Positions 1,574 through 52,526 of a DNA stretch of 64,000 bases are shown in pieces (the stretch's first letter is position 1; each line of letters starts with the position of its first letter). The stretch is from NCBI RefSeq assembly GCF_058153355.1, contig NZ_CM177019.1; one strand, written 5' to 3'. Position numbers and translations under genes: made by a program. The notes below the pieces were generated by a model that had not been told where the DNA came from, made no database searches, and saw nothing but the letters and a program-made list of their open reading frames with translations.

Positions 1574-3895
1574 TTAACGTTTTTTGCCCATTGCTGCCGC
1601 CAGCGCATCCATCATTGCGCTATTACCGGCAGGCTGCGCTTCACGACCGCGTGGTTTGGCTGCCGGGCGGTTGTTTTGCGGACGTTCATTACCGCCGCCG
1701 CGACGGGCGTTGGTTTCGCCAGGCTGCTCGTCCAGACGCATAGTCAGGGCGATACGTTTACGCTGAAGATCCACTTCCAGCACTTTCACCTTCACAATGT
1801 CGCCCGCTTTCACCACGGTATGCGGATCTTCCACAAACTTGTTCGACAATGAAGAGATGTGAACCAGGCCGTCCTGATGCACGCCAATATCGACAAACGC
1901 GCCAAAGTTGGTGACGTTGGTCACCGCACCTTCGAGGATCATACCCGGTTGCAGGTCGTTCATTGTCTCGACGCCATCGGCAAACTGGGCGGTTTTAAAT
2001 TCCGGACGCGGATCGCGACCTGGTTTTTCCAACTCTTTGATGATGTCGGTTACCGTCGGCACACCGAATTTCTCATCAGTAAAGTCAGACGCTTTCAGGT
2101 TACGCAGTTCGCTGCTGTTACCCATCAGATCTTTCAGTGCCTGCTGTGTTGCTGCCAGAATGCGTTCCACCACCGGATAGGCTTCCGGGTGAACAGTAGA
2201 GGCGTCCAGCGGGTTGTCACCGTGGTTAATGCGCAAGAAGCCTGCGCACTGCTCGAAGGCTTTTGGCCCCAGGCGGCTGACTTTTAACAGTTGCTGACGG
2301 TTCTGGAACTGGCCGTTCTCATCGCGCCAGGCCACAATGTTTTGCGCCATCATGCGCGTCAGGCCAGCCACGCGAGTTAACAGCGGAACAGAAGCGGTAT
2401 TGAGATCGACGCCAACGGCGTTTACGCAGTCTTCTACTACTGCATCCAGTTTGCGGGCCAGTTGCGTCTGGCTGACGTCATGCTGATATTGACCTACGCC
2501 GATAGATTTCGGATCGATTTTCACCAGCTCCGCCAGCGGATCCTGCAAACGACGGGCGATAGACACCGCGCCACGCAGCGAAACATCGAGATCCGGGAAC
2601 TCCTGCGCCGCCAGTTCGGAAGCCGAGTAAACCGACGCGCCTGCTTCGCTGACGACCACTTTCTGTGCGGTCACTTTCGGAAACTGCTTCTGAACGTCGA
2701 GATAGAAACGCTCAGTTTCGCGGGAAGCCGTACCGTTACCGATTGCCACCAGTTCAACGTTATGTTTTTCACACAAGGCAGCAACGGTCATCGCTGCTTT
2801 TGCGGCTTGTCCGGTGTGCGGGTAAATGGTGTCGGTCGCCACCAGTTTACCCGTCGCATCGACTACCGCCACTTTTACCCCAGTACGCAGACCCGGATCG
2901 AGGCCCATCGTTGCACGCAGTCCGGCAGGGGCCGCCATCAGAAGATCGTGTAGGTTACGGGCAAAGACGTTGATTGCTTCATCTTCCGCGCGTTCACGCA
3001 CTGTGCCCATCAGTTCGGTTTCCAGATGCATCAGCACCTTGATGCGCCACGTCCAGCTCACCACGCCTTTGCGCCAGCTATCCGCCGGGGCATTGTTCAG
3101 GCGCAGGCCAAGGTGATCCATGATGATTTGCTCGCAATAGCTCTCTTTTGGCGGCTCATCGAACTGCGGATCGGCATTCAGCGAAAGTTGGAGTACGCCT
3201 TCGTTACGCCCACGGAACATCGCCAGCGCGCGGTGAGAAGGCACCGTTGACAGCGGTTCGTGATGATCGAAATAGTCGCGGAATTTCGCCCCTTCCTCTT
3301 CTTTACCGTTCACCACCGTAGAAACCAAATGCGCGTTCTTCCACAGATAATCACGCACTTTCGCCAGCAGCGCGGCATCTTCGGCAAACCGTTCCATCAG
3401 GATATAGCGCGCGCCGTCCAGCGCGGCTTTGGTATCTGCTACGCCTTTATCGGCATCAACATATTGTGCAGCGGCGACTTCTGGCGTGTGCGACGGATCG
3501 TTCCACAGTAGGTCGGCCAACGGCTCAAGCCCTGCTTCAATGGCGATTTGCCCGCGGGTGCGGCGTTTAGGTTTGTAGGGCAGGTAGAGGTCTTCGAGTT
3601 CGGTTTTGCTTAAGGTGGCGTTGATAGCATTCGCCAGCTCGTCGGTCAGTTTGCCTTGCTCGGAAATGGACTTGAGGATTGCCTGACGTCTCTCTTCCAG
3701 CTCGCGCAAATAGCTCAGACGCGTTTCCAGATTACGCAGCTGCGTGTCATCCAGACCGCCGGTGATTTCCTTACGATAACGTGCGATAAACGGCACGGTA
3801 TTCCCTTCGTCAAGCAGGCGAACGGCAGCGTCAACCTGTTCCGGGCGCGCCTGAATTTCACCCGCAATAATGCGGCAGAACGAATCATTCATCAT
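1574..3895 (-). CDS. tex: Transcription accessory protein Tex (S1 RNA-binding domain protein YhgF)
   Basis: 773-aa ORF starting [21 protein letters not shown] with a C-terminal S1-like region; length and sequence match E. coli YhgF/Tex. Confidence 0.95.
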
Positions 3896-4695: not shown

Positions 4696-6764
<2,069 letters not shown>

Positions 6765-6927: not shown

Positions 6928-8211
6928 ATGCAACTTACCAACGAAGAACAAGTACAGATTGCTCGTATAAAAGAAAAAATCCCACGCATTGCCGCACTGG
7001 ATCCTGAATGTAAGTTATTCGGTTCTGAAGGTTGGAAATATCAATGGCCGAAGCCTGCCAGCGAGGCGGAAATAGCTTCCTGGGAGAAAAAACATAGCGT
7101 CACTTTGCCACGGGAATATCGAATTTTTCTTCGCTATATCGCTAATGGCGGTCCGGCACATGCCTACGGTCTTGAATCTTTAGGCGGTACAGATATTTAT
7201 GGCGATATAACAAAAGAAAGCCCTGTACCGCTTTATATGACGCAGCAGGATGTTGATGTGTTGAATGCAGGCCGTACAGAAGATGATGAAGAATATAGTT
7301 TTTTTGACGGCGCATTGACCATTCTCACCCTGGGATGTACTTATGATATTTGCCTGGTGGTGACGGGGCAGTATCGCGGAAGGTTAATGCTGACTGATGG
7401 TGATGAAGATTATCCGTTTGATTTTATATATGATAAAAATTTCCTCAACTGGTATGAACGCTGGCTGGACGATTTTATTGCTGGCATGAGTATGAAGGGT
7501 TTCGATAGAAGTTTGCCAGGAACGCAAATTCAACTGCGTGAGTGGTTTTTAACTGAGAAAATCCCGGATTTACGTAGATCCATTTTATTCTCGCTATGCC
7601 GTTTTCCACAGATAGAACCCGAAACATTTGCCCTTTGGGAACATGTTTGCCGCACAGAGAATGATAAAGAATTGTGTGAAGAGGCATTCATAAGATTACG
7701 CCAAAAAAAAGTTTCTTGTGCTGCAGATATTTTTCGACTCTATTTTACAATGCCAGATGAATTACGTGATATTGCTATTAAAGATCTCCGTTTTGCCTGT
7801 AGAGATAGTGTGGTGAATATTGAGGATTATATTCATTCACTGTTAATAATAATGCCTGAACTTGACGATGACACTCTATCCTCAGCTGTCTTTGCTGTAC
7901 GAGAAACAGAGTATAATAAATATGATACTTTTCTGCCGCTTCTCGAACGTATCACTGATGACCGTCAGCAAACATTATTGTGGGCGATGAGTAAGGCGCC
8001 TGATTTCAATGAAAGCCGAGGATTCGTTGAGTTGGTATTACCGCTTTTTGCATCATCAAAGATGGAGAATGTAAGGAAGGCTATTTTGTTGCTCATTGAA
8101 GTTAAAGATAATCGTATTCCACCATTGGTTGATGAAGCTGCAACTCGTTTCCCTGAACTGACCATTTTACGAGAAAACTACTATCTCAGGACGTGGGGAC
8201 ATAAGCCATAA
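6928..8211 (+). CDS. Hypothetical protein with N-terminal SUKH/SMI1-KNR4-like domain and C-terminal alpha-helical (HEAT-like) repeat region; first gene of the AT-rich island
   Basis: Long ORF (427 aa from the ATG; the track starts 3 nt upstream at TTG). RBS aaggaa lies 7 nt upstream of the ATG. Motif SEAEIASWEKKHSVTLPREYRIFLRYIANGG resembles the SMI1/KNR4 (SUKH-1) signature. The C-terminal part, e.g. ENVRKAILLLIEVKDNRIPPLVDEA, looks HEAT-like. Not a K-12 gene that I recognise. Confidence 0.8.
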   Translation: MQLTNEEQVQIARIKEKIPRIAALDPECKLFGSEGWKYQWPKPASEAEIASWEKKHSVTLPREYRIFLRYIANGGPAHAYGLESLGGTDIYGDITKESPVPLYMTQQDVDVLNAGRTEDDEEYSFFDGALTILTLGCTYDICLVVTGQYRGRLMLTDGDEDYPFDFIYDKNFLNWYERWLDDFIAGMSMKGFDRSLPGTQIQLREWFLTEKIPDLRRSILFSLCRFPQIEPETFALWEHVCRTENDKELCEEAFIRLRQKKVSCAADIFRLYFTMPDELRDIAIKDLRFACRDSVVNIEDYIHSLLIIMPELDDDTLSSAVFAVRETEYNKYDTFLPLLERITDDRQQTLLWAMSKAPDFNESRGFVELVLPLFASSKMENVRKAILLLIEVKDNRIPPLVDEAATRFPELTILRENYYLRTWGHKP

Positions 8212-8248
8212 ATTAATGGCTCAGAAATGATCTAACGCGGAGAGAAAT

Positions 8249-8779
8249 ATGATCAGGGAACATATTCAGCAAGCGATAAATAATAGGTTAGCATTTGATG
8301 GCCCATTCAATGTTGTTCCTGAACCTGCAAGCACTGCGTTTGATAGCCGGATCCCGACATTGAAAAACGGTGTCTGGCAGAAGGCCAGCCCTATGTTGCA
8401 GGCGCGTTTTGCACATTGTGGACGTTGGTTAAGCGCTACACATGGAAGCTGGCTAAGTATAAGTGACATGGAAACGCTTTGGCAGGAACACATAGAAGAT
8501 ACGTTTCTTGATGAAATCAAAATGAATGCTGTAGCTTCAAGTGATAATTGGGATAACCATGCCTTGGGACTATTTCGTTCTCATCGCCTGTCACTTTTTG
8601 CCGGTAGTGATTACATTTATGAAATGGTTTTTCTCCTTTGGCTAGATAGTACCGTTGAGCCAGAGGTCTGGGTTTATGACTGCAATGGGGAATCACGTTA
8701 TAAAGATCTTAATGATTACCTGAATGCATATATTAATGATGACGTAAGCGCCTGTGAGCGCTCCTGGCGAGTAGAATGA
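8249..8779 (+). CDS. Hypothetical small soluble Trp-rich protein (island gene 2)
   Basis: 176-aa ORF with GGAGAG RBS 5 nt upstream, 37 bp after gene 1. No TM segment. No family recognised with confidence; the C-terminal VWVYDCNGESRYKDLNDYLNAYIND weakly recalls SUKH-type immunity folds. Confidence 0.75.
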   Translation: MIREHIQQAINNRLAFDGPFNVVPEPASTAFDSRIPTLKNGVWQKASPMLQARFAHCGRWLSATHGSWLSISDMETLWQEHIEDTFLDEIKMNAVASSDNWDNHALGLFRSHRLSLFAGSDYIYEMVFLLWLDSTVEPEVWVYDCNGESRYKDLNDYLNAYINDDVSACERSWRVE

Positions 8780-9402
8780 ATAGCCCCCCTTGCCCCTTTG
8801 ATCCACAAACCGCACATTACCTCGGTACAGTGCAAATCCACTACACCTCAACCACCTTCAACGCTGCCGTTAAGCATTATACCTATCACATTAAAAAGCG
8901 TTTTAAAGGGTTTAAATGGGGAATTGGTACCGCTGGCTTATTGGCTATATTGCCCATGATCCCACAATGGTTGAAACCTTCTCATGACTTTAAACTCAAC
9001 GCAATCAGTACGTTAATTCTTCTATTAATGTTGCCACTCCTCTTATCAATGTTCCTGTTAATCAGCAGAAGAATTAACGATTTTAAGTCAAAAACAAAGC
9101 AAGTTACTTTTACGAAACCCGTGCGTTATGCGTTTTATTTCGAGGGGATTGTTTTTTATGAATCTCATCAGCAGGGCATACTTCGCTGGGAAGATTTTTA
9201 TAGCATTGACTATGAAGAAGATTATTTGTGGCTTTTTCTGCATTTACCGAAGAGTTTTCCCAGAGAAGCGACGAAAGCGTTTTGCGATATTTTCATTCCC
9301 GCCAGCGCGATAAAAGCGCAGCCTGAACTGGATACGTTTTTTCGTGAAACACGCCACTATCTGGATTATCTGTTTGTCCCGTTTAATTCTGACAGAAAAT
9401 AA
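8776..9402 (+). CDS. Hypothetical inner-membrane protein (2 predicted TM helices) with C-terminal soluble domain (island gene 3)
   Basis: 208-aa ORF whose ATG overlaps the gene 2 stop (ATGA). Hydrophobic stretches WGIGTAGLLAILPMIPQWL (aa 48-66) and AISTLILLLMLPLLLSMFLLI (aa 76-96). The C-terminal ~110 aa are possibly YcxB-like/bacterial PH-like (unverified). Confidence 0.75.
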   Translation: MNSPPCPFDPQTAHYLGTVQIHYTSTTFNAAVKHYTYHIKKRFKGFKWGIGTAGLLAILPMIPQWLKPSHDFKLNAISTLILLLMLPLLLSMFLLISRRINDFKSKTKQVTFTKPVRYAFYFEGIVFYESHQQGILRWEDFYSIDYEEDYLWLFLHLPKSFPREATKAFCDIFIPASAIKAQPELDTFFRETRHYLDYLFVPFNSDRK

Positions 9403-9403
9403 A

Positions 9404-9437
9404 AAATCCCCCGTATCTGGTGAAACGGGGGATTTCG
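9404..9437. terminator. Intrinsic terminator shared by island gene 3 (+) and pck (-)
   Basis: aaaaaatcccccgt...acgggggatttcg hairpin with an A-run on one side giving a T-run on the minus strand; sits between the gene 3 stop (9402) and the pck stop (9455). Confidence 0.75.
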
Positions 9438-18556: not shown

Positions 18557-21109
18557 TCAGAACAATTCCTGTGCCTCGCCATTATCGATAATGGTCGTTC
18601 CCACCTCGTGCACCGCCTGTTGTGTCGGCTGTGTACCTTCGATGAAATACTCTTCGCGGCTGTTGCCACCATTAGCTAACTGCCCGGTGCTGCGATCGAT
18701 ATTCACCGTCACAATACCCGGCGGCGGCGTCAGCGGCTGTTCCGGCACGCCTTCAAGAACGGCTTTCATATAAGCGTCCCATGCAGGCTGGGCACTCTTG
18801 GCACCGCCTTCGTAACCTGAGATCTGATCTTTAATCGCTCCGGAAGCCGTTGTATGACCGAGATTACGGCGGTGATCATCAAAGCCAATCCAAACCGAGG
18901 TCACAACGCCCGGACCGTAACCCGAGAACCACGCATCTTTCGAACTGTTAGTGGTACCCGTTTTTCCGCCGATATCATGCCGTTGTAAATCACGACCTGC
19001 TCGCCAGCCGGTACCCTGCCAGCCTGGCTCACCAAAAATATTGGTGTTCAGGGCGCTCTTAATCAGGAATGCCAGCGGAGTGTTGATGACGTGCGGTGCG
19101 TACTCCTGCGCGCCAGTCTTCGCGACTAACGCCTGATTCGCCTGCTCCAGCTGCGGCATTGGTACAGAAACATTCTGCTGCTCGCGGGAGATAGCGACAT
19201 CTTCAACATCGTTATTTTCCAGCACGTTCGATTTCTGCGTATCACCGTAAATCACCGGAATATCGCATTCCGGGCAGGCTACTTTCGGTTTCGCTTCGAA
19301 AATCACGCCGCCCTGATCGTTTTCAATTTTGCTGATAAACCACGGGTCCACCAGGAAGCCGCCGTTCGCCATTACCGCGTAGCCGCGCGCCACCTGCATT
19401 GGGGTGAAGGACGCTGAACCCAGCGCCAGCGATTCGGTGTGGACAATGTTTTGCGCCGGGAAGCCGAAGCGTTGCAGATATTCTGCAGCGTAGTCGACGC
19501 CCATCGCCCGCATTGCGCGTACCATCACCACGTTTTTCGACTGGCCCAGTCCCTGACGTAAGCGAATTGGACCGGCATACTGTGGTGGTGAGTTCTTCGG
19601 CTGCCAGTCAGAACCGGCACCTGCATCCCAGCGGGAAATTGGCACATCGTTCAACATACTTGCCAGCGTCAGACCTTTATCCATCGCCGCGGTGTAGAGG
19701 AACGGTTTGATGTTGGAACCTACCTGACGCAGTGCCTGGGTGGCGCGGTTAAACTTGCTCTGATTGAAATCAAAGCCACCGACCAGCGCCATAACGGCAC
19801 CGTTTTGCGGATTGATCGACACCAGCGCCGAGTTCACTTCCGGCACTTGTGCCAGCCACCATGTATCGCCAACCTGACGAACCCAGATTTGCTGACCCGT
19901 TTGCAGAACATCGGTCACTTTACGCGGCGTCGGTCCCTGCTGAGTATCCGAACGGTAAGGACGCGCCCAGCGAACGCCTTCCATACTCAATGCGACGGTC
20001 GACCCGTCCGCCAGCATCGCCGTCGCTTCCTGAGGATTGGCGCTGGTGACTGCGGCAGGCAGCAGCGGACCATAGGTCGGCAGCGCCTTCAGCGTATCGG
20101 TAATCTTGTTGTTATCCCACGCCGATTCGCCCACTTTCCACAGCACATTTGCCGGGCCGCGATAGCCGTGGCGCATGTCGTAGTCCAGCACGTTATTACG
20201 TACTGCCTGCTGTGCGGCCTGCTGTACTTTGCGGGTGATGGTGGTGTAAATGCGATAACCGTCTTCATAGGCACTTTCGCCATAACGGTTATACATCTCC
20301 TGGCGCACCATTTCGCTCAGGTACGGCGCAGAGAAAGCAATCTCCGGCGCGTGATAGTTAGCGTTAATCGCCTCAGTGCGTGTCTGATCGAACTGTTGTT
20401 GGGTGATATACCCTTCATCCAGCATCCGCGACAGTACGACGTTACGCCGCGCGACGGCACGATCCATTGAGTAGAGCGGATTAAAGGTGGAAGGCGCTTT
20501 CGGCAGCCCGGCTATCACCGCCATTTCGTTCAGCGTCAGTTGGTCGACCGTTTTACCGAAATAGACTTGTGCCGCAGCACCGACACCATAGGCGCGGTAA
20601 CCGAGGTAAATCTTGTTCAGATAAAGCTCGAGGATCTCGTCTTTCGTCAGCAACTGTTCAATGCGAATCGCGAGGAAGACTTCCTTAATCTTACGCATCA
20701 GCGTGCGTTCTGGACTGAGGAAGAAGTTTCTCGCCAGCTGCTGGGTAATGGTACTCGCCCCTTGTGACGCGTGGCCGGAGAACAGCGCCACACTTGCCGC
20801 ACGGAAGATCCCCACCGGGTCAACGCCGTGATGCTCGTAGAAGCGGCTGTCTTCCGTCGCGATAAAGGCTTTCACCATCTCCGGCGGGATTTGATCCAAC
20901 GTAACCGGAATACGACGTTTCTCACCGTATTGAGCAATCAGCTCGCCATCGGCGCTGTAAATCTGCATCGGAATTTGCAGGCGAACATCTTTTAATGTCG
21001 CCACATCCGGCAGTTGTGGCTCGATGTAGCGGTATAGGCCATAAATCGAGCCTGCTCCCAGCAGAATGCAACAGACTGCAAGGATCAAAAAATACTTTAC
21101 GAACTTCAC
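18557..21109 (-). CDS. mrcA: Penicillin-binding protein 1A (bifunctional transglycosylase/transpeptidase)
   Basis: Track ORF is 858 aa (MKLNGKFPVKFVKYFLIL...). The K-12 product is remembered as about 850 aa starting at the GTG that gives MKFVKYFLIL, so the start is placed there; the alternative ATG start is at 21133. Confidence 0.9.
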   Translation of the reverse strand: MKFVKYFLILAVCCILLGAGSIYGLYRYIEPQLPDVATLKDVRLQIPMQIYSADGELIAQYGEKRRIPVTLDQIPPEMVKAFIATEDSRFYEHHGVDPVGIFRAASVALFSGHASQGASTITQQLARNFFLSPERTLMRKIKEVFLAIRIEQLLTKDEILELYLNKIYLGYRAYGVGAAAQVYFGKTVDQLTLNEMAVIAGLPKAPSTFNPLYSMDRAVARRNVVLSRMLDEGYITQQQFDQTRTEAINANYHAPEIAFSAPYLSEMVRQEMYNRYGESAYEDGYRIYTTITRKVQQAAQQAVRNNVLDYDMRHGYRGPANVLWKVGESAWDNNKITDTLKALPTYGPLLPAAVTSANPQEATAMLADGSTVALSMEGVRWARPYRSDTQQGPTPRKVTDVLQTGQQIWVRQVGDTWWLAQVPEVNSALVSINPQNGAVMALVGGFDFNQSKFNRATQALRQVGSNIKPFLYTAAMDKGLTLASMLNDVPISRWDAGAGSDWQPKNSPPQYAGPIRLRQGLGQSKNVVMVRAMRAMGVDYAAEYLQRFGFPAQNIVHTESLALGSASFTPMQVARGYAVMANGGFLVDPWFISKIENDQGGVIFEAKPKVACPECDIPVIYGDTQKSNVLENNDVEDVAISREQQNVSVPMPQLEQANQALVAKTGAQEYAPHVINTPLAFLIKSALNTNIFGEPGWQGTGWRAGRDLQRHDIGGKTGTTNSSKDAWFSGYGPGVVTSVWIGFDDHRRNLGHTTASGAIKDQISGYEGGAKSAQPAWDAYMKAVLEGVPEQPLTPPPGIVTVNIDRSTGQLANGGNSREEYFIEGTQPTQQAVHEVGTTIIDNGEAQELF

Positions 21110-21228
21110 TGGAAATTTCCCATTTAGTTTCATTTGGGCAGTTTATAAACAAACGCGCGGTAGTATAAAGGCAAGCCAGACGCATTGATATACCCGTCAG
21201 AGTGACGGGTGATAAGGAGATCATCACG

Positions 21229-22008
21229 ATGGCATTTAAGATCTGGCAAATTGGTTTGCATTTACAACAGCAAGAAGCGGTGGCGGTTGCGATCGTGCGG
21301 GGCGCAAAAGAATGCTTTTTGCAACGCTGGTGGCGGTTGCCGCTGGCGAACGACATAATCAAAGATGGGCGGATTGTCGATGCACAGCGGCTGGCTAAAA
21401 CGTTGTTACCGTGGAGTCGCGAACTGCCGCAGCGTCATCACATTATGTTGGCGTTTCCCGCCAGTCGCACATTACAGCGGTCATTTCCGCGCCCGTCGAT
21501 GTCCCTTGGTGAGCGGGAGCAAACGGCCTGGCTGTCCGGGACGATGGCCCGCGAGCTGGATATGGATCCGGACTCCCTGCGCTTCGATTACAGCGAAGAC
21601 TCACTCAGTCCCGCCTATAACGTGACTGCCGCGCAAAGCAAAGAGCTGGCAACGCTGCTTACTTTGGCAGAAAGGTTGCGTGTTCATGTTAGTGCGATCA
21701 CCCCGGATGCCAGTGCATTACAGCGATTCCTGCCTTTTTTACCTTCTCATCAGCAATGTCTGGCCTGGCGTGATAACGAACAGTGGCTGTGGGCGACGCG
21801 CTATAGCTGGGGGCGCAAACTGGCGGTGGGGATGACTAGCGCGAAGGAGCTGGCGGCAGCGTTATCCGTTGATCCCGAAAGCGTCGCGCTATGTGGCGAA
21901 GGCGGATTTGACCCGTGGGAGGCGGTTTCTGTTCGTCAGCCGCCGCTACCGCCGCCAGGTGGAGACTTTGCCATCGCGCTGGGGCTGGCGCTAGGGAAGG
22001 CGTACTGA
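21229..22008 (+). CDS. hofM: Type IV pilus/DNA-uptake assembly protein HofM (PilM-like)
   Basis: MAFKIWQIGLHLQQQE... preceded by an AAGGAG RBS; first gene of the hofMNOPQ cluster, divergent from mrcA. Confidence 0.85.
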   Translation: MAFKIWQIGLHLQQQEAVAVAIVRGAKECFLQRWWRLPLANDIIKDGRIVDAQRLAKTLLPWSRELPQRHHIMLAFPASRTLQRSFPRPSMSLGEREQTAWLSGTMARELDMDPDSLRFDYSEDSLSPAYNVTAAQSKELATLLTLAERLRVHVSAITPDASALQRFLPFLPSHQQCLAWRDNEQWLWATRYSWGRKLAVGMTSAKELAAALSVDPESVALCGEGGFDPWEAVSVRQPPLPPPGGDFAIALGLALGKAY

Positions 22009-22547
22009 TGAACCCGCCAATTAATTTTTTGCCCTGGCGACAGCAACGCCGGACCGCTTTTCTTCGTTTCTGGTTGCTGATGTTCGTTGCGCCTCTGCTG
22101 CTGACCGTCGGGATAACGCTAATATTGCGTCTGACAAGCAACGCCGAAGCTCGCGTAGATGCCGTTTTGCTTCAGGCGGAACAACAACTCGCCCACAGCT
22201 TACAAATAACGAAACCACGTTTGCTGGAGCGCCAACAAATTCGTGAGCAGCGTTTGCAAAGGCAGCGCCAGCGACAATTTACCCGTGACTGGCAATCTGC
22301 GCTGGAAGCACTGGCGGCGCTTTTACCCGAGCACGCCTGGCTGACAACGATAAGCTGGCAGCAGGGAACGCTGGAGATCAAGGGGCTAACAACAAGCATT
22401 ACCGCGTTAAACGCGCTGGAAACGTCACTCCGCCAGGATGCTTCTTTTCATCTCAATCAGCGGGGGGCCACGCAGCAGGATGCGCAGGGACGCTGGCAAT
22501 TTGAGTATCAGTTAACAAGGAAGGTTAGCGATGGACATGCTCTTTGA
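22008..22547 (+). CDS. hofN: HofN (PilN-like)
   Basis: Start MNPPINFLPWRQQRR at the TGATG overlap with hofM; 179 aa with a single TM. Confidence 0.85.
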   Translation: MNPPINFLPWRQQRRTAFLRFWLLMFVAPLLLTVGITLILRLTSNAEARVDAVLLQAEQQLAHSLQITKPRLLERQQIREQRLQRQRQRQFTRDWQSALEALAALLPEHAWLTTISWQQGTLEIKGLTTSITALNALETSLRQDASFHLNQRGATQQDAQGRWQFEYQLTRKVSDGHAL

Positions 22548-22971
22548 CTGGTGGTTCGCCACATCACCCCGCCTCCGCCAGCTTTGCTGGGCATTCTGGT
22601 TGATGATGTTAGTTACGCTCATTTTTCTGTCATCGACACACCAGGAAGAGAGCGACGCATTAATTCGACTACGGGCAAGTCATTACCAGCAGTGGGCCGC
22701 ACTGTATCGCCTGGTAAACACCACTCCCTTCAGCGAGGAAAAAACGCAGCCCTTTTCGCCACTGGATTTTCAGTTATCCGGCGCGCAACTGGTTTACTGG
22801 CATCCATCCGCGCAGGGAGGTGAGTTGGCGTTGAAAACGCTGTGGGAAGCAGTGCCGTCGGCATTTACACGGCTGGCAGAGCGCAACGTCAGCGTGAGCC
22901 GTTTTTCGTTAAGCGTGGAAGGTGATGACCTTTTGTTCACGCTACAACTGGAGACGCCGCATGAGGGTTAA
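22531..22971 (+). CDS. hofO: HofO (PilO-like)
   Basis: 146-aa ORF overlapping the hofN end; operon position. Confidence 0.8.
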   Translation: MDMLFDWWFATSPRLRQLCWAFWLMMLVTLIFLSSTHQEESDALIRLRASHYQQWAALYRLVNTTPFSEEKTQPFSPLDFQLSGAQLVYWHPSAQGGELALKTLWEAVPSAFTRLAERNVSVSRFSLSVEGDDLLFTLQLETPHEG

Positions 22972-23365
22972 ACGCTGGTTGTTGGCAGGTATTGCATTGT
23001 GCCTTTTAACCGGTATGCGTGACCCTTTTAAACCGCCGGAAGATCTATGCCGGATTAGCGACCTTAGCCAGTGGCGCTATCAGGGGATGGTAGGGCGAGG
23101 CGAGCGCATCATCGGTGTAATAAAAGATGGGCAAAAAAAATGGCGACGGGTGCAGCAAAACGATGTGCTGGAAAACGGCTGGACGATCTTACAGCTAACG
23201 CCAGACGTACTAACGCTGGGAACCGGGACAAACTGCGAACCGCCACACTGGTTGTGGCAACGGCAAGGAGATACAAATGAAGCAATGGATAGCCGCACTA
23301 CTGTTGATGCTGATACCCGGCGTACAGGCGGCAAAGCCGCAAAAAGTGACGCTGATGGTGGATGA
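22961..23365 (+). CDS. hofP: HofP (PilP-like lipoprotein)
   Basis: Internal start MRVKRWLLAGIALCLLTGM (lipoprotein-type signal); 134 aa. Confidence 0.8.
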   Translation: MRVKRWLLAGIALCLLTGMRDPFKPPEDLCRISDLSQWRYQGMVGRGERIIGVIKDGQKKWRRVQQNDVLENGWTILQLTPDVLTLGTGTNCEPPHWLWQRQGDTNEAMDSRTTVDADTRRTGGKAAKSDADGG

Positions 23366-24515
23366 CGTTCCGGTAGCTCAGGTGTTGCAGGCGCTGGCTG
23401 AACAGGAGAAGTTGAACCTGGTGGTGTCGCCAGACGTCAGCGGTACGGTGTCGTTACATCTAACAGATGTTCCCTGGAAGCAAGCACTACAAACTGTAGT
23501 GAAAAGCGCCGGACTGATAACGCGTCAGGAGGGCAACATTCTCTCGGTGCATTCCGTTGCCTGGCAGAATGACAATATCGCCCGTCAGGAGGCGGAGCAG
23601 GCGCGGGCGCAGGCAAATCTGCCGCTGGAAAATCGCAGTATAACCCTGCAATACGCCGACGCGGGAGAACTGGCGAAAGCGGGGGAGAAGCTACTGAGTG
23701 CCAAAGGGAGTATGACCGTCGATAAACGCACCAATCGCCTTTTGCTGCGAGATAACAAAGCGGCGTTAAGCGCGCTTGAACAGTGGGTAGCGCAAATGGA
23801 TCTGCCGGTCGGGCAGGTTGAGCTGTCGGCGCATATTGTCACCATTAATGAAAAAAGTTTGCGTGAGTTAGGCGTGAAATGGACGTTGGCTGATGCGCAA
23901 CAAGCTGGTGGCGTTGGGCAAGTCACCACGCTTGGCAGCGACCTCTCCGTAGCGACGGCGACAACGCATGTCGGTTTTAACATTGGACGCATTAACGGAC
24001 GTTTACTGGATCTTGAGCTTTCCGCGCTCGAACAAAAACAGCAGCTGGATATTATCGCCAGTCCGCGTCTGCTGGCCTCACATCTTCAGCCTGCCAGCAT
24101 TAAACAGGGGAGTGAAATTCCATATCAGGTTTCCAGCGGGGAAAGTGGCGCGACGTCGGTGGAATTTAAAGAGGCCGTCCTGGGGATGGAAGTTACGCCC
24201 ACGGTGTTACAAAAAGGTCGCATCCGGCTGAAATTACACATCAGCCAGAACGTTCCGGGGCAGGTGCTACAGCAGGCCGATGGCGAAGTGCTGGCGATTG
24301 ATAAGCAGGAGATCGAAACGCAGGTCGAGGTCAAAAGCGGAGAAACGTTGGCGCTGGGTGGCATTTTTACCCGTAAAAATAAATCGGGTCAGGATAGCGT
24401 ACCGTTGCTTGGCGACATTCCCTGGTTCGGGCAATTATTTCGTCATGACGGAAAAGAAGATGAACGACGCGAGTTAGTGGTGTTTATCACGCCACGACTG
24501 GTTTCCAGTGAGTAA
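23277..24515 (+). CDS. hofQ: Secretin HofQ (PilQ/GspD family outer-membrane channel)
   Basis: 412 aa with signal peptide MKQWIAALLLMLIPGVQA and a secretin C-domain (…LGGIFTRKNKSGQDSVPLLGDIPWFGQLFR). Confidence 0.9.
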   Translation: MKQWIAALLLMLIPGVQAAKPQKVTLMVDDVPVAQVLQALAEQEKLNLVVSPDVSGTVSLHLTDVPWKQALQTVVKSAGLITRQEGNILSVHSVAWQNDNIARQEAEQARAQANLPLENRSITLQYADAGELAKAGEKLLSAKGSMTVDKRTNRLLLRDNKAALSALEQWVAQMDLPVGQVELSAHIVTINEKSLRELGVKWTLADAQQAGGVGQVTTLGSDLSVATATTHVGFNIGRINGRLLDLELSALEQKQQLDIIASPRLLASHLQPASIKQGSEIPYQVSSGESGATSVEFKEAVLGMEVTPTVLQKGRIRLKLHISQNVPGQVLQQADGEVLAIDKQEIETQVEVKSGETLALGGIFTRKNKSGQDSVPLLGDIPWFGQLFRHDGKEDERRELVVFITPRLVSSE

Positions 24516-24915
24516 ACAGCCGTAAAAGCGGTAATGTTTTTACGCTGAACGTGTTTCATCTATTTGACGCGCGCAGGTATTTAGCATACAAGGAGTACCG
24601 ATTTGAGAGTTGGTGCTCTTCGCTGCCTGCGTTCCATGATGATGATTTATCATTCAGGCGGCATTTTGCTGTCTTTTTTACGCTAATCTTACCCGGTGAT
24701 TTATCGCCAGAGCGGTGGTAGCAAGGCAGCGCGCTTGCAGCGACCAGATATGCAGAGGGATGGGTGATTTATTCAGTTGCCAAACCCGCTGGAGTATTGA
24801 GATAATTTTCAGTCTGACTCTCGCAATATCTTATGAGGTTTCAGTTCATGTCCTGCGGCGCTCTCTGAGCGAAGCGGGTTTATCATTAACGAATAGTCTT
24901 AGTAGTACCGAAAAA

Positions 24916-25437
24916 ATGGCAGAGAAACGCAATATCTTTCTGGTTGGGCCTATGGGTGCCGGAAAAAGCACTATTGGGCGCCAGTTAGCTCAACAACTCA
25001 ATATGGAATTTTACGATTCCGATCAAGAGATTGAGAAACGAACCGGAGCTGATGTGGGCTGGGTTTTCGATTTAGAAGGCGAAGAAGGCTTCCGCGATCG
25101 CGAAGAAAAGGTCATCAATGAGTTGACCGAGAAACAGGGTATTGTGCTGGCTACTGGCGGCGGCTCTGTGAAATCCCGCGAAACGCGTAACCGTCTTTCC
25201 GCTCGTGGCGTTGTCGTTTATCTTGAAACGACCATCGAAAAGCAACTTGCACGCACGCAGCGTGATAAAAAACGCCCGTTGCTGCACGTTGAAACACCGC
25301 CGCGTGAAGTTCTGGAAGCGTTGGCCAATGAACGCAATCCGCTGTATGAAGAGATTGCCGACGTGACCATTCGTACTGATGATCAAAGCGCTAAAGTGGT
25401 CGCAAACCAGATTATTCACATGCTGGAAAGCAACTAA
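24916..25437 (+). CDS. aroK: Shikimate kinase I
   Basis: [28 protein letters not shown] (P-loop), 173 aa; the 67-codon upstream extension in the track ORF is rejected. Confidence 0.95.
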
Positions 25438-25493
25438 TTCTGGCTTTATATACACTCGTCTGCGGGTACAGTAATTAAGGTGGATGTCGCGTT

Positions 25494-26582
25494 ATGGAGA
25501 GGATTGTCGTTACTCTCGGGGAACGTAGTTACCCAATTACCATCGCATCTGGTTTGTTTAATGAACCAGCTTCATTCTTACCGCTGAAATCGGGCGAGCA
25601 GGTTATGTTGGTCACCAACGAAACCCTAGCTCCTCTGTATCTCGATAAGGTCCGCGGCGTACTTGAACAGGCGGGTGTTAACGTCGATAGCGTTATCCTC
25701 CCTGACGGCGAGCAGTATAAAAGCCTGGCTGTACTCGATACCGTTTTTACGGCGTTGTTACAAAAGCCGCATGGTCGCGATACTACGCTGGTGGCGCTTG
25801 GCGGCGGCGTAGTGGGCGATCTGACCGGCTTCGCGGCGGCGAGTTATCAGCGTGGTGTACGTTTCATTCAAGTCCCGACGACGTTACTGTCGCAGGTCGA
25901 TTCCTCCGTTGGCGGCAAAACTGCGGTCAACCATCCCCTCGGTAAAAACATGATTGGCGCGTTCTACCAGCCAGCTTCAGTGGTAGTGGATCTCGACTGT
26001 CTGAAAACGCTTCCCCCGCGTGAGTTAGCGTCGGGGCTGGCAGAAGTCATCAAATACGGCATTATTCTTGACGGTGCGTTTTTTAACTGGCTGGAAGAGA
26101 ATCTGGATGCGTTGTTGCGTCTGGACGGTCCGGCAATGGCGTACTGTATTCGCCGTTGTTGTGAACTGAAGGCAGAAGTTGTCGCCGCCGACGAGCGCGA
26201 AACCGGGTTACGTGCTTTACTGAATCTGGGACACACCTTTGGTCATGCCATTGAAGCTGAAATGGGGTATGGCAATTGGTTACACGGTGAAGCGGTTGCT
26301 GCGGGTATGGTGATGGCGGCGCGGACGTCGGAACGTCTCGGGCAGTTTAGTTCTGCCGAAACGCAGCGTATTATAACCCTGCTCACGCGGGCTGGGTTAC
26401 CGGTCAATGGGCCGCGCGAAATGTCCGCGCAGGCGTATTTACCGCATATGCTGCGTGACAAGAAAGTCCTTGCGGGAGAGATGCGCTTAATTCTTCCGTT
26501 GGCAATTGGTAAGAGTGAAGTTCGCAGCGGCGTTTCGCACGAGCTTGTTCTTAATGCCATTGCCGATTGTCAATTAGCGTAA
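25494..26582 (+). CDS. aroB: 3-dehydroquinate synthase
   Basis: 362 aa, [22 protein letters not shown]...; operon position after aroK. Confidence 0.95.
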
Positions 26583-37829: not shown

Positions 37830-38915
37830 ATGAAGACGTTTCCTTTGCAAAGCCTGACGCTTATTGAAGCGCAGCAAAAGCAGTTTGCGTTGGTGGATAC
37901 GATTTGCCGCCATTTTCCCGGCGCGGAGTTTCTTACCCGCGGTGATTTGGGCTTAACGCCGGGACTGAATCAACCGCGTATTACTCAGCGTGTGGAGCAG
38001 GTGCTGGCTGACGCGTTTCATGCGCCAGCGGCGGCGCTGGTACAGGGCGCGGGTACTGGAGCGATTCGTGCGGCGTTGGCGGCTTTGCTCAAACCGGGGC
38101 AGCGTCTTCTGGTGCATGACGCGCCTGTTTACCCGACGACTCAGGTCATTATTGAGCAGATGGGGCTGACACTTATCACTGCTGATTTCAACAACCTGTC
38201 GGCGCTTAAACAGGCCATTGAAGAGCAACAACCAGATGCCGCGCTGGTGCAGCATACGCGCCAGCAGCCGCAGGACAGCTATGTACTGGCAGATGTGCTG
38301 GCAACGCTGCGCGCAGCAGGTGTTCCAGCCTTAACCGATGACAACTATGCGGTGATGAAGGTGGCGCGCATTGGCTGTGAATGCGGGGCGAATGTCTCGA
38401 CATTTTCCTGCTTCAAGCTATTTGGGCCAGAAGGTGTTGGCGCGGTGGTAGGCGATGCTGATGTTATTAACCGTATTCGCGCCACGCTCTACTCCGGCGG
38501 CAGCCAGATTCAGGGCGCGCAGGCGTTGGAAGTCTTGCGTGGGCTGGTATTCGCGCCAGTGATGCACGCGGTACAGGCGGGGGTATCTGAGCGGTTGCTG
38601 GCTTTACTTAACGGTGGCGCGGTGGCGGAAGTTAAAAGCGCCGTTATTGCCAATGCACAGTCGAAGGTGTTGATTGTGGAGTTTCATCAACCGATTGCCG
38701 CCAGAGTGCTTGAAGAGGCGCAAAAGCGCGGCGCGTTGCCTTATCCGGTCGGCGCAGAGTCAAAATATGAAATCCCGCCGCTCTTTTATCGACTTTCCGG
38801 AACGTTTCGTCAGGCGAATCCGCAATTAGAACATTGTGCAATTCGCATTAACCCGAATCGCAGCGGTGATGAGACGGTATTGCGGATTTTGCGCGAGAGT
38901 ATTGCCAGCGTTTAA
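37830..38915 (+). CDS. yhfS: Putative PLP-dependent aminotransferase-like protein YhfS
   Basis: 361-aa ORF, last gene of the yhf cluster. Confidence 0.8.
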   Translation: MKTFPLQSLTLIEAQQKQFALVDTICRHFPGAEFLTRGDLGLTPGLNQPRITQRVEQVLADAFHAPAAALVQGAGTGAIRAALAALLKPGQRLLVHDAPVYPTTQVIIEQMGLTLITADFNNLSALKQAIEEQQPDAALVQHTRQQPQDSYVLADVLATLRAAGVPALTDDNYAVMKVARIGCECGANVSTFSCFKLFGPEGVGAVVGDADVINRIRATLYSGGSQIQGAQALEVLRGLVFAPVMHAVQAGVSERLLALLNGGAVAEVKSAVIANAQSKVLIVEFHQPIAARVLEEAQKRGALPYPVGAESKYEIPPLFYRLSGTFRQANPQLEHCAIRINPNRSGDETVLRILRESIASV

Positions 38916-39019
38916 TTCTGGGAACGATGTTTTCGCAGAGGATGGAGAAAAATACGCCCTCGGAAAATTCAGAGGGCGTTAGCTCATTAAATCGGTGTTA
39001 GCCGATTTCTGTCAGAGAC

Positions 39020-39187
39020 TTACTGTGCAGTAGGACCGCAACCGCCAATGATTTTAGAAATAGAAATTGCCGGGTGCAGCAGGTAGTCGTAAGAGCAGTT
39101 CTTATCACGGTTTTCAATATGACCAGTACATGCAGTTAACGTAGCCAGTACTGCACCTACCAGTGCAACTTTAATAAATTTGTTCAT
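39020..39187 (-). CDS. yhfL: Small lipoprotein YhfL
   Basis: Not in the ORF track (<60 aa). Manual minus-strand translation gives MNKFIKVALVGAVLATLTACTGHIENRDKNCSYDYLLHPAISISKIIGGCGPTAQ (55 aa) with a lipobox LTAC. Confidence 0.8.
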   Translation of the reverse strand: MNKFIKVALVGAVLATLTACTGHIENRDKNCSYDYLLHPAISISKIIGGCGPTAQ

Positions 39188-39433
39188 TTACATTCCCTAT
39201 GTATTATATATTAATTAATATTCATTGATTATATGAATATAAGCGGACTGCTCATAAAAAACGATACAGGAATATTTAATTGGCGTCAGTGAGTGAATGA
39301 CTTAATTTTGTAAGTCGCTGTAACGGTGAATATAATCCATTAGCAAATGATATTTATTAAGAGGGTATGCTTTATTTGCTGAATATATAAAAAGAGTGAT
39401 AAAGAGGGCCAGAATTATCTGGCCCGGGTAAAA

Positions 39434-51893: not shown

Positions 51894-52526
51894 TTAACGA
51901 GTGCCGTAAACGACGATGGTTTTACCGTGTGCGGAGATCAGGTTCTGATCTTCCAGCATCTTCAGAATGCGCCCCACGGTTTCACGAGAACAGCCGACAA
52001 TCTGACCGATTTCCTGACGGGTAATTTTGATTTGCATACCGTCCGGGTGAGTCATGGCATCCGGTTGTTTTGCCAGGTTCAGCAGAGTCTGTGCAATGCG
52101 GCCCGTCACGTCGAGGAACGCCAGGTTGCCCACTTTCTCTGAAGTGACTTGCAAACGACGCGCCATCTGTGCAGAAAGACGCATCAGAATGTCCGGGTTT
52201 ACCTGAATCAATTGGCGAAATTTTTTGTATGAAATTTCAGCCACTTCACAGGCGGTTTTCGCACGTACCCATGCGCTACGTTCCTGGCCTTCTTCAAACA
52301 GGCCCAGTTCGCCAATAAAATCACCCTGATTCAGATAGGAGAGGATCATTTCTTTACCCTCTTCATCTTTGATCAGCACTGCCACAGAGCCTTTAACGAT
52401 GTAGTACAGCGTTTCCGCTTTTTCACCCTGGTGAATAAGCGTGCTCTTGGATGGGTACTTATGAATGTGGCAATGAGACAAGAACCATTCGAGAGTCGGG
52501 TCTGTTTGCGGTTTGCCAAGCACCAT
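51894..52526 (-). CDS. crp: cAMP receptor protein
   Basis: 210 aa, [50 protein letters not shown]... Confidence 0.98.

Follow-up and report, generated by a model that had tools for sequence, protein, structure and literature searches.

The plus-strand interval 21,229–24,515 of the window (the whole 64,000-nucleotide stretch of DNA that was analysed) is almost certainly the chromosomal E. coli hofMNOPQ operon, formerly yrfD-yrfC-yrfB-yrfA-hofQ, which encodes the envelope-spanning scaffold of a machine resembling the type IVa pilus. Read as open reading frames from the window, all five genes have an ATG start and a single terminal stop, and their coordinates (Table 1) equal those in the RefSeq annotation of the nearest genome, strain N96. 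They lie co-oriented in the order M-N-O-P-Q between the divergent mrcA and aroK-aroB, an arrangement on which the open reading frames, RefSeq and the K-12 annotation agree; the gene identities and the divergent mrcA neighbour proposed in an earlier sequence-only reading are thereby confirmed. No sequence evidence contradicting this assignment was found.

E. coli K-12 (b3395-b3391) carries the same five genes with the same order, lengths and overlaps, and it likewise has the divergent mrcA, the downstream aroK-aroB-damX and a 119-bp mrcA-hofM spacer (118/119 identical). Alignment to the K-12 MG1655 counterparts revealed no gap, indel, frameshift, internal stop or other inactivating mutation, in keeping with the earlier claim that all five genes are intact. 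The two operons differ by point substitutions only, amounting to 3, 10, 10, 2 and 4 amino-acid differences in HofM, HofN, HofO, HofP and HofQ (98.8, 94.4, 93.2, 98.5 and 99.0% identity, respectively); MrcA differs at four residues. The operon was also correctly described as not novel: all but one of the 5426 complete E. coli genomes carry the locus, and the exact five proteins are already deposited publicly as HofM, HofN, HofO, HofP and HofQ. Because the operon is complete, undamaged and already well known, its identification is correct but not new.

Table 1. Positions of the hof genes, their junctions and the flanking features in the window.
Feature	Position	Strand	Description
mrcA (PBP1a)	18557..21109	-	RefSeq annotation; divergent neighbour of hofM
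Invariant block	20937..21194		roughly the first 58 mrcA codons and most of the mrcA-hofM spacer
CRP-binding fragment	20953..21078		within the 5' portion of the mrcA coding sequence; primers yrfDF and yrfDR (PMC1635313) map exactly
Candidate CRP-S sites	20964-20979 TGCATCGGAATTTGCA; 21045-21060 ATCGAGCCTGCTCCCA		weak, at the fragment ends; putative assignments
hofM	21229..22008	+	259 aa; short cytoplasmic PilM-like protein, predicted actin-like fold
hofM/hofN junction	22006..22010	+	TGATG, 1-nt overlap, read directly from the sequence
hofN	22008..22547	+	179 aa; PilN-like bitopic inner-membrane protein
hofN/hofO overlap	22531..22547	+	17 nt, read directly from the sequence
hofO	22531..22971	+	146 aa; bitopic protein in the PilO position
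hofO/hofP overlap	22961..22971	+	11 nt, read directly from the sequence
hofP	22961..23365	+	134 aa; periplasmic protein in the PilP position
hofP/hofQ overlap	23277..23365	+	89 nt, read directly from the sequence
hofQ	23277..24515	+	412 aa; outer-membrane secretin
Terminator-like hairpin and T-run	24656..24684	+	pattern scan; 141 nt past the hofQ stop

Components of the machine and its likely role

The operon is the enterobacterial counterpart of pilMNOPQ / comABCDE. Its five-gene order is like that of PilMNOPQ in Pseudomonas aeruginosa, Thermus and Myxococcus, which forms the type IVa pilus alignment subcomplex plus secretin, and the likeness extends to the PilM-like fold predicted for HofM, the PilN domain of HofN and a HofQ score above the PilQ cut-off. 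On the other hand, HofM has 259 residues compared with about 350, HofO and HofP fall in enterobacterial-type Pfam families only, and the 412-residue HofQ is without the N-terminal region of the 570–900-residue PilQ proteins. Haemophilus influenzae comABCDE and Vibrio cholerae pilMNOPQ are treated as orthologous and as being under the same Sxy-dependent CRP-S control (PMC1635313).

HofQ matched the NCBIfam model NF007851 ('DNA uptake porin HofQ') with 856.6 bits (cut-off 598) and TIGR02515 (PilQ) with 448.1 bits (cut-off 284), and it contains the Pfam domains STN, Secretin_N and Secretin. Its top PDB matches are type IV pilus secretins (PilQ); the best of them, and the closest solved relative, is the V. 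cholerae competence secretin 6w6m (E = 1.6e-74), to residues 158–569 of which HofQ aligns, without the long N-terminal extension. The N-terminus of HofQ (MKQWIAALLLMLIPGVQA) looks like a signal peptide.

HofN scored 37.9 bits with Pfam PilN (PF05137, cut-off 22.8), and its N-terminal MNPPINFLPWR is followed by a hydrophobic helix; we take the PINFLPWR stretch to resemble the PilM-binding INLLP motif. RefSeq labels the present HofN allele 'PilN domain-containing protein' and not HofN. HofO and HofP matched only their own Pfam families (PF25319, 89.1 bits with a cut-off of 27, and PF10748, 262.6 bits with the entire model, 1–132, covered), and no PilO or PilP model was matched even at E values up to 10. 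Their equivalence to PilO and PilP would rest on gene position and size. An HMM search of HofN, HofO and HofP against the NCBIfam library returned no match.

HofM fell below the thresholds of the PilM sequence models (TIGR01175, 15.8 bits with a cut-off of 133; PF11104, 11.8 bits with a cut-off of 27) and is ~90 residues shorter than PilM. A single-sequence search of PDB sequences yielded nothing relevant; with a HofM profile, the two best PDB matches were PilM, at non-significant E values (0.3–0.6). Precomputed PF11104 matches exist for homologues at ~50% identity, one of them marked faint. The AlphaFold2 model of HofM (pLDDT 83.8) had the PilM structures 5eou and 2ych as its top PDB matches (E = 1.8e-13, TM 0.68–0.70), with 11–15% identity in the structural alignment. 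We count as new that the predicted structure of HofM matches PilM though the sequence models are sub-threshold. For HofM, the type-IV-pilus membership originally claimed is thus supported by the predicted fold but not by the sequence models.

In the assembly model that we infer, HofM would be a shortened cytoplasmic PilM-like protein of the actin fold, HofN and HofO would sit in the inner membrane as bitopic proteins, HofP would serve as the connector in the periplasm, and HofQ would form the outer-membrane secretin channel. Its partners, encoded at other genomic sites, are ppdD (pilin), hofB (ATPase), hofC (platform protein) and the homologues of ComEA/ComEC. With these, the machine would draw double-stranded DNA through the HofQ channel and into the periplasm, where the DNA may be degraded for nutrients or handed on for recombination. 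The suggested link to DNA uptake and nutrition agrees with the literature, from which we take the requirement for hofQ: its knockout abolishes Sxy-dependent transformation (PMC3330819), and DNA as a nutrient was the subject of Palchevskiy & Finkel 2006, as cited in PMC9273947. Natural competence is readily shown in H. influenzae and V. cholerae, but in E. coli only with artificial sxy expression, and the natural inducing conditions in E. coli are described as unknown (PMC3330819).

It is unlikely that the machine serves chiefly to build an adhesive surface pilus of PpdD (the 'haemorrhagic coli pilus'), with DNA uptake as a side effect. In favor of such a role, the parts are those with which type IVa pili are assembled, and enterohaemorrhagic strains make PpdD pili. 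Assembly of E. coli PpdD into pili is credited to Sauvonnet et al. 2000, as cited in PMC3330819. However, HofQ does not have the long N-terminal extension that pilus secretins carry, its V. cholerae relative 6w6m is, for its part, a competence secretin, the operon is part of the Sxy/CRP-S competence regulon (PMC1635313), and the sampled O157:H7 genome has a frameshift in hofM. Pilus assembly and DNA uptake are not mutually exclusive; DNA uptake is the role that we favor.

Gene junctions and overlaps

The hofM start codon has a Shine-Dalgarno sequence (AAGGAG) 9 nt upstream, and at the hofM/hofN junction, which reads ACTGATGAAC, the TGA and ATG have one base in common. The sequence-only reading had named this overlap and those of hofN/hofO and hofO/hofP, all of which are present, but omitted hofP/hofQ, the longest of the operon. 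The 1-nt hofM/hofN overlap is shared by E. fergusonii, Salmonella, Citrobacter and Kosakonia, with 4 nt in Yokenella; hofN/hofO overlap by 17 nt in four of the five other genera, by their gene calls, and hofO/hofP by 11 nt, again in four of five. Across the five other enterobacterial genera, the genes keep their order and the overlaps at M/N, N/O and O/P persist (the lengths at N/O and O/P in 4/5), which we count as new. The pattern suggests translational coupling across the hof junctions: short conserved overlaps, each with a Shine-Dalgarno sequence within the upstream gene, would couple translation and may keep the subunits in proportion.

The hofP/hofQ overlap carries three polymorphic sites among 12 E. 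coli alleles and is very unlikely to be an annotation artefact in which HofP ends earlier or HofQ starts later. Such an artefact would be in line with the inter-genus ranges of 35–152 nt for the overlap and 115–157 residues for HofP, and because both vary, the HofP tail looks weakly constrained. Nevertheless, the hofQ ATG at 23277 follows AAGGAG by 7 nt and starts a plausible signal peptide, hofP is stop-free until 23365, and the Pfam HofP model reaches the very end of the protein (residues 3–134 on model positions 1–132 of 132). Moreover, the gene calls of all six genera include a hofP/hofQ overlap, whatever its length. We retain the 89-nt overlap as annotated.

Control region and flanking spacers

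The sequence-only reading called the operon cryptic in laboratory E. coli, in agreement with published expression data: the operon is barely transcribed without Sxy, which raises the yrfD (hofM) transcript 16-fold, and this induction needs CRP and cAMP (PMC1635313). The yrfD promoter fragment binds CRP weakly in gel shift, with two CRP-S sites predicted at its ends; two such weak sites, not one, are predicted at enterobacterial promoters (PMC1635313). Since window and K-12 agree over the whole fragment (126/126), the published binding result should carry over. An intact crp gene is present within the same window (51894-52526). We take the induction by Sxy and CRP from the literature and infer the exact CRP-S sites. 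When the window was searched for the CRP-S core TGCGA-N6-TCGCA, allowing at most two mismatches, there were 30 matches where chance predicts 47, and none of them lies upstream of hofM; this strict consensus was dropped for placing sites, and the CRP-S positions therefore remain candidates. Expression would be off in ordinary culture and would need cAMP-CRP and Sxy at weak CRP-S sites within the start of mrcA.

The CRP-binding fragment lies inside an unusually invariant block, an observation that we count as new. Over 259 bp, the block has no polymorphic site among 12 alleles, whereas the rest of the alignment is polymorphic at 5.2% of sites, and a 200-bp query within it (20957-21156) was found at an identity of at least 99% in 5425 of 5426 records, versus 3772 when a segment of mrcA was used as a control. 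Across six genera, 136 of the 160 columns at 21039-21198 are invariant, as are 15 of the 16 columns of the candidate CRP-S site at 21045-21060. The block is presumed to be a control region common to the divergent mrcA and hofM. The RefSeq start of mrcA is a GTG, and its reading frame stays open on to an ATG at 21133. An Rfam search over 20500-25600 returned only a sub-threshold asponA match (14.7 bits versus 113), and a scan for promoter and terminator patterns gave counts no higher than in shuffles.

On the other side of the operon, the hairpin downstream of hofQ possibly marks the end of the operon transcript; it is only a candidate because such sites are not above chance in the region. Structure prediction gives the 400-nt hofQ-aroK spacer a good fold (z = -3.7), and the spacer includes a block, conserved across genera, that carries AAGGAG followed by TTG. 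The 27-codon open reading frame after this AAGGAG/TTG is not conserved as a peptide in the other genera, and a conserved small protein in the spacer is therefore unlikely. A literature search found no mention of the spacer. There is a small chance that both flanks, namely the 160–260-bp block over the mrcA start and mrcA-hofM spacer and the 400-nt hofQ-aroK spacer, each far more invariant than the bordering genes, hold undescribed control elements. If so, an example would be a regulatory RNA or leader coupling cell-wall synthesis by mrcA, DNA uptake by hof and the aroK-dam operon.

Variation, selection and meaning

Only 18 of the 5426 records are at least 99% identical to the window over the operon, and the hofN-hofO segment of the window is a minority allele. 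Across 12 alleles, dN/dS was 0.165 for hofM, 0.175 for hofN, 0.508 for hofO, 0.181 for hofP and 0.079 for hofQ, with 0.08 for the housekeeping gene aroB. The hof genes are thus under purifying selection (0.08–0.18, except HofO at 0.5), which we also count as new. The least constrained of the five, hofO (about 0.51), differs between the window and K-12 by 10 non-synonymous and 2 synonymous changes (pairwise dN/dS 1.5). Among ten complete alleles of a spread sample, gene lengths are kept except for the hofM frameshift of the O157:H7 genome ECP17-1298 and, in one allele, an in-frame 6-nt deletion in hofQ. In addition, the urinary isolate CNR20180903 has lost hofQ at a rearrangement, and the protein collection holds many truncated or fused HofM variants. 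Synteny of the hof genes extends to five other enterobacterial genera, with HofM identity there at only 51–69%.

That the operon is intact by chance only, as a functionless relic decaying neutrally in E. coli, would fit its near silence in laboratory culture (PMC1635313), the dN/dS values of HofO and the lesions in some lineages, but is extremely improbable given the near-aroB dN/dS of four of the five genes, the gene lengths kept in the spread sample, the near-universal presence of the locus, the conservation of architecture, overlaps and control region over six genera, and the phenotype of the hofQ knockout (PMC3330819). Together, the population and cross-genus comparisons lend modest support to selection keeping this 'cryptic' operon, and not decay.

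The significance of hofMNOPQ integrity here is little more than book-keeping. The strain retains the complete envelope gene set for Sxy-dependent DNA uptake, unlike the O157:H7 genome (hofM) and the urinary isolate (hofQ), and, provided that the remainder of the competence regulon is also intact, it would in principle be able to take up DNA.

Layout and integrity of the hofMNOPQ operon

Open reading frame listing and direct translation placed five tandem hof genes in the window, each with an ATG start and a single stop codon at its end. The region was found by megablast in 5,425 of 5,426 complete E. coli genomes, with the best match in strain N96 (99.8 %). RefSeq positions of hofM, hofN, hofO, hofP and hofQ in N96 translate exactly to the window coordinates, and the range of 21229-24515 given by a sequence-only reading is therefore exact. 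That reading had also described divergence from mrcA and overlaps at three junctions, all of which we recovered: hofM and hofN share 1 nt in TGATG, hofN and hofO overlap by 17 nt, hofO and hofP by 11 nt, and mrcA lies 119 bp from hofM on the opposite strand. An 89-nt overlap of hofP and hofQ was missing from its list.

Features of the hof locus and comparison of its proteins with K-12 MG1655. The hof coordinates come from ORF listing, direct translation and RefSeq N96; dN/dS is from a small sample, uncorrected for kinship; contigs are those with the exact protein.
Feature	Window position	Strand	Amino acid differences from K-12	Identity to K-12 (%)	dN/dS	Contigs
mrcA	18557-21109	-			0.020	
hofM	21229-22008	+	3	98.8	0.165	756
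hofN	22008-22547	+	10	94.4	0.175	632
hofO	22531-22971	+	10	93.2	0.508	708
hofP	22961-23365	+	2	98.5	0.181	17
hofQ	23277-24515	+	4	99.0	0.079	147
hofQ-aroK spacer	24516-24915					
aroB					0.079	
crp	51894-52526	-				

The Shine-Dalgarno-like purine runs of hofM to hofQ are, in order, AAGGAG, GGGAAGG, AAGGAAGG, TGGAGA and AAGGAG, and those of the last four genes each lie inside the gene before. Loci with HofM relatives (69 to 51 % identical) were compared from E. fergusonii, Salmonella, Citrobacter, Yokenella and Kosakonia; all five share the order igaA, nudE, mrcA, then divergent hofMNOPQ, aroK, aroB, damX, with an mrcA-hofM spacer of 119-120 bp. As called, the M/N overlap is 1 nt in four of the five (Yokenella, 4 nt), the N/O overlap 17 nt in four (Yokenella, 11 nt), the O/P overlap 11 nt in four (E. 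fergusonii, 8 nt) and the P/Q overlap 35-152 nt. The first three are conserved features, and the hofP/hofQ overlap is never absent and variable in length. Together, the conserved overlaps and internal Shine-Dalgarno sequences suggest translational coupling of the hof genes.

All five genes equal their K-12 MG1655 counterparts in length and align with zero gaps; the search for inactivating mutations by this alignment was thus negative, and the operon is intact, as the sequence-only reading had held. The exact HofM, HofN, HofO, HofP and HofQ sequences are already public under those names, and RefSeq labels the HofN allele only as 'PilN domain-containing protein'. As a DNA allele of the whole operon, the window copy belongs to a minority: just 18 of 5426 records match it at 99 % identity or better. 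An intact operon is the norm. Natural lesions do occur in other strains, and recording the window copy as intact is therefore reasonable: in E. coli O157:H7 ECP17-1298 (3001-3779 of the fetched locus) hofM is flagged as frameshifted, since a GGGG run close to its 3' end (window-equivalent 21981) is 1 nt short, which alters the last nine codons; the urinary isolate CNR20180903 no longer has hofQ, lost where the locus joins a truncated barA (5085-5195 of its locus); hofQ of E100341 carries a 6-nt in-frame deletion (window-equivalent 23600-23605); and many HofM variants in the protein collection are shortened or fused to HofN.

Protein folds and selection

Pfam assigned a PilN domain to HofN, the HofO domain to HofO, the HofP family to HofP, and STN, Secretin_N and Secretin to HofQ. 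HofQ scored 856.6 bits against the NCBI HofQ model (cut-off 598) and 448 bits against the PilQ model (cut-off 284). Among solved structures it is closest to type IV pilus secretins, the best being the V. cholerae competence secretin 6w6m (E 1.6e-74); the alignment covers only residues 158-569 of 6w6m, so HofQ is a short secretin. HofM was the weak point of the 'type IV pilus' label of the sequence-only reading because no sequence model reached threshold, and we therefore gathered homologues and predicted its structure from 37 aligned sequences (pLDDT 83.8, pTM 0.81). The top Foldseek matches in the PDB were the PilM proteins of P. aeruginosa and T. thermophilus (E 1.8e-13 to 2e-11; query-based TM 0.64-0.70), followed by the GspL/EpsL cytoplasmic domain and FtsA; the model thus points to a PilM-like actin-fold protein, although HofM is ~90 residues shorter than canonical PilM.

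Ten complete alleles spread over the identity ranking were aligned with K-12 over 8 kb, from mrcA to aroB. Nei-Gojobori dN/dS over all pairs of this small, kinship-uncorrected sample gave clear purifying selection on hofM, hofN, hofP and hofQ, and HofO is much less constrained than the other four Hof proteins. Between window and K-12, HofO carries 10 non-synonymous and 2 synonymous changes. The regional peak of nucleotide diversity falls on hofN-hofO (22008-22971), where a 200-bp stretch can hold as many as 28 polymorphic sites in 12 alleles.

Two invariant flanks

Cameron and Redfield (PMC1635313) predicted two CRP-S sites in the yrfD (hofM) promoter, found weak CRP binding to a promoter fragment in gel shifts, and reported 16-fold induction by Sxy that depended on CRP and cAMP. 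In the window, the primers of that gel-shift fragment fall at 20953-21078, within the first codons of mrcA, and the fragment is identical to K-12 (126/126). It lies inside 20937-21194 (259 bp), which spans approximately the first 58 mrcA codons and most of the mrcA-hofM spacer and shows zero polymorphism in 12 alleles, compared with 5.2 % polymorphic sites overall. Identity of 99 % or more was reached in 5,425 of 5,426 records by a 200-bp query (20957-21156) and in 3,772 by a control mrcA segment. When six genera are aligned over 21039-21198, 136 of the 160 columns do not vary (~85 %, versus ~60-70 % in adjoining mrcA coding sequence), including synonymous positions of approximately the first 24 mrcA codons. 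A strict CRP-S consensus search allowing up to 2 mismatches returned no site upstream of hofM; weak candidates lie at 20964-20979 and 21045-21060, at the fragment ends where the paper puts its sites, and the latter is invariant in 15 of 16 columns across six genera. The conservation of 20937-21194 exceeds the need of CRP-S sites alone, and the segment may contain the promoters of the two divergent transcripts, or an RNA element. A sub-threshold Rfam match to asponA ('anti ponA RNA') was seen at 20955-20980. The window also carries crp, whose product activates the hof promoter, intact (210 aa) and ~27 kb downstream of hofQ.

On the other side, the unannotated 400-nt hofQ-aroK spacer has 0 differences from K-12 and reaches 99 % identity or more in 5424 of 5425 E. 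coli records, a level that the adjoining operon attains in only 18. Its predicted RNA fold beats all 100 shuffles (z = -3.7); a search against Rfam gave no match, and a literature search on the spacer found no paper. Only two blocks are conserved across six genera: 24562-24613, with AAGGAG at 24590 and a TTG at 24603 opening a 27-codon ORF whose peptide is not conserved across the genera compared, and 24770-24915, with a promoter-like TTGCCA-18-TGaGATAAT and the aroK leader. Low diversity runs on through aroK (dS 0.016 versus ~0.06 elsewhere), so part of the spacer conservation may be regional.

Genomic setting and function

The window is collinear with N96 over 990-44698 (98.6 % identity). 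Between envZ and pckA (window ~6938-9412), N96 has a three-gene insert, in which one gene encodes a protein of the SMI1/KNR4 family and the other two encode hypothetical proteins. The frl (fructoselysine) operon, which in K-12 lies between yhfS and yhfL, is absent (window ~38900-39200). These two are probably the 'variable loci' of the sequence-only reading.

The mechanism given here for the hof system rests on literature and homology. Expression of sxy leads to DNA uptake in E. coli, and a hofQ knockout abolishes it (Sinha and Redfield, PMC3330819); PMC9273947 credits Palchevskiy and Finkel 2006 with the work on DNA as a nutrient. By analogy with PilMNOPQ systems, HofMNOP would be the scaffold through which a pilus motor in the inner membrane connects with the HofQ channel. 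Overall, the earlier observation is confirmed and its interpretation supported: hofMNOPQ here is already known and ordinary, and what is added is confined to the hofP/hofQ overlap, fold support for a PilM-like HofM, evidence of selection on the operon, and two strikingly invariant flanks.
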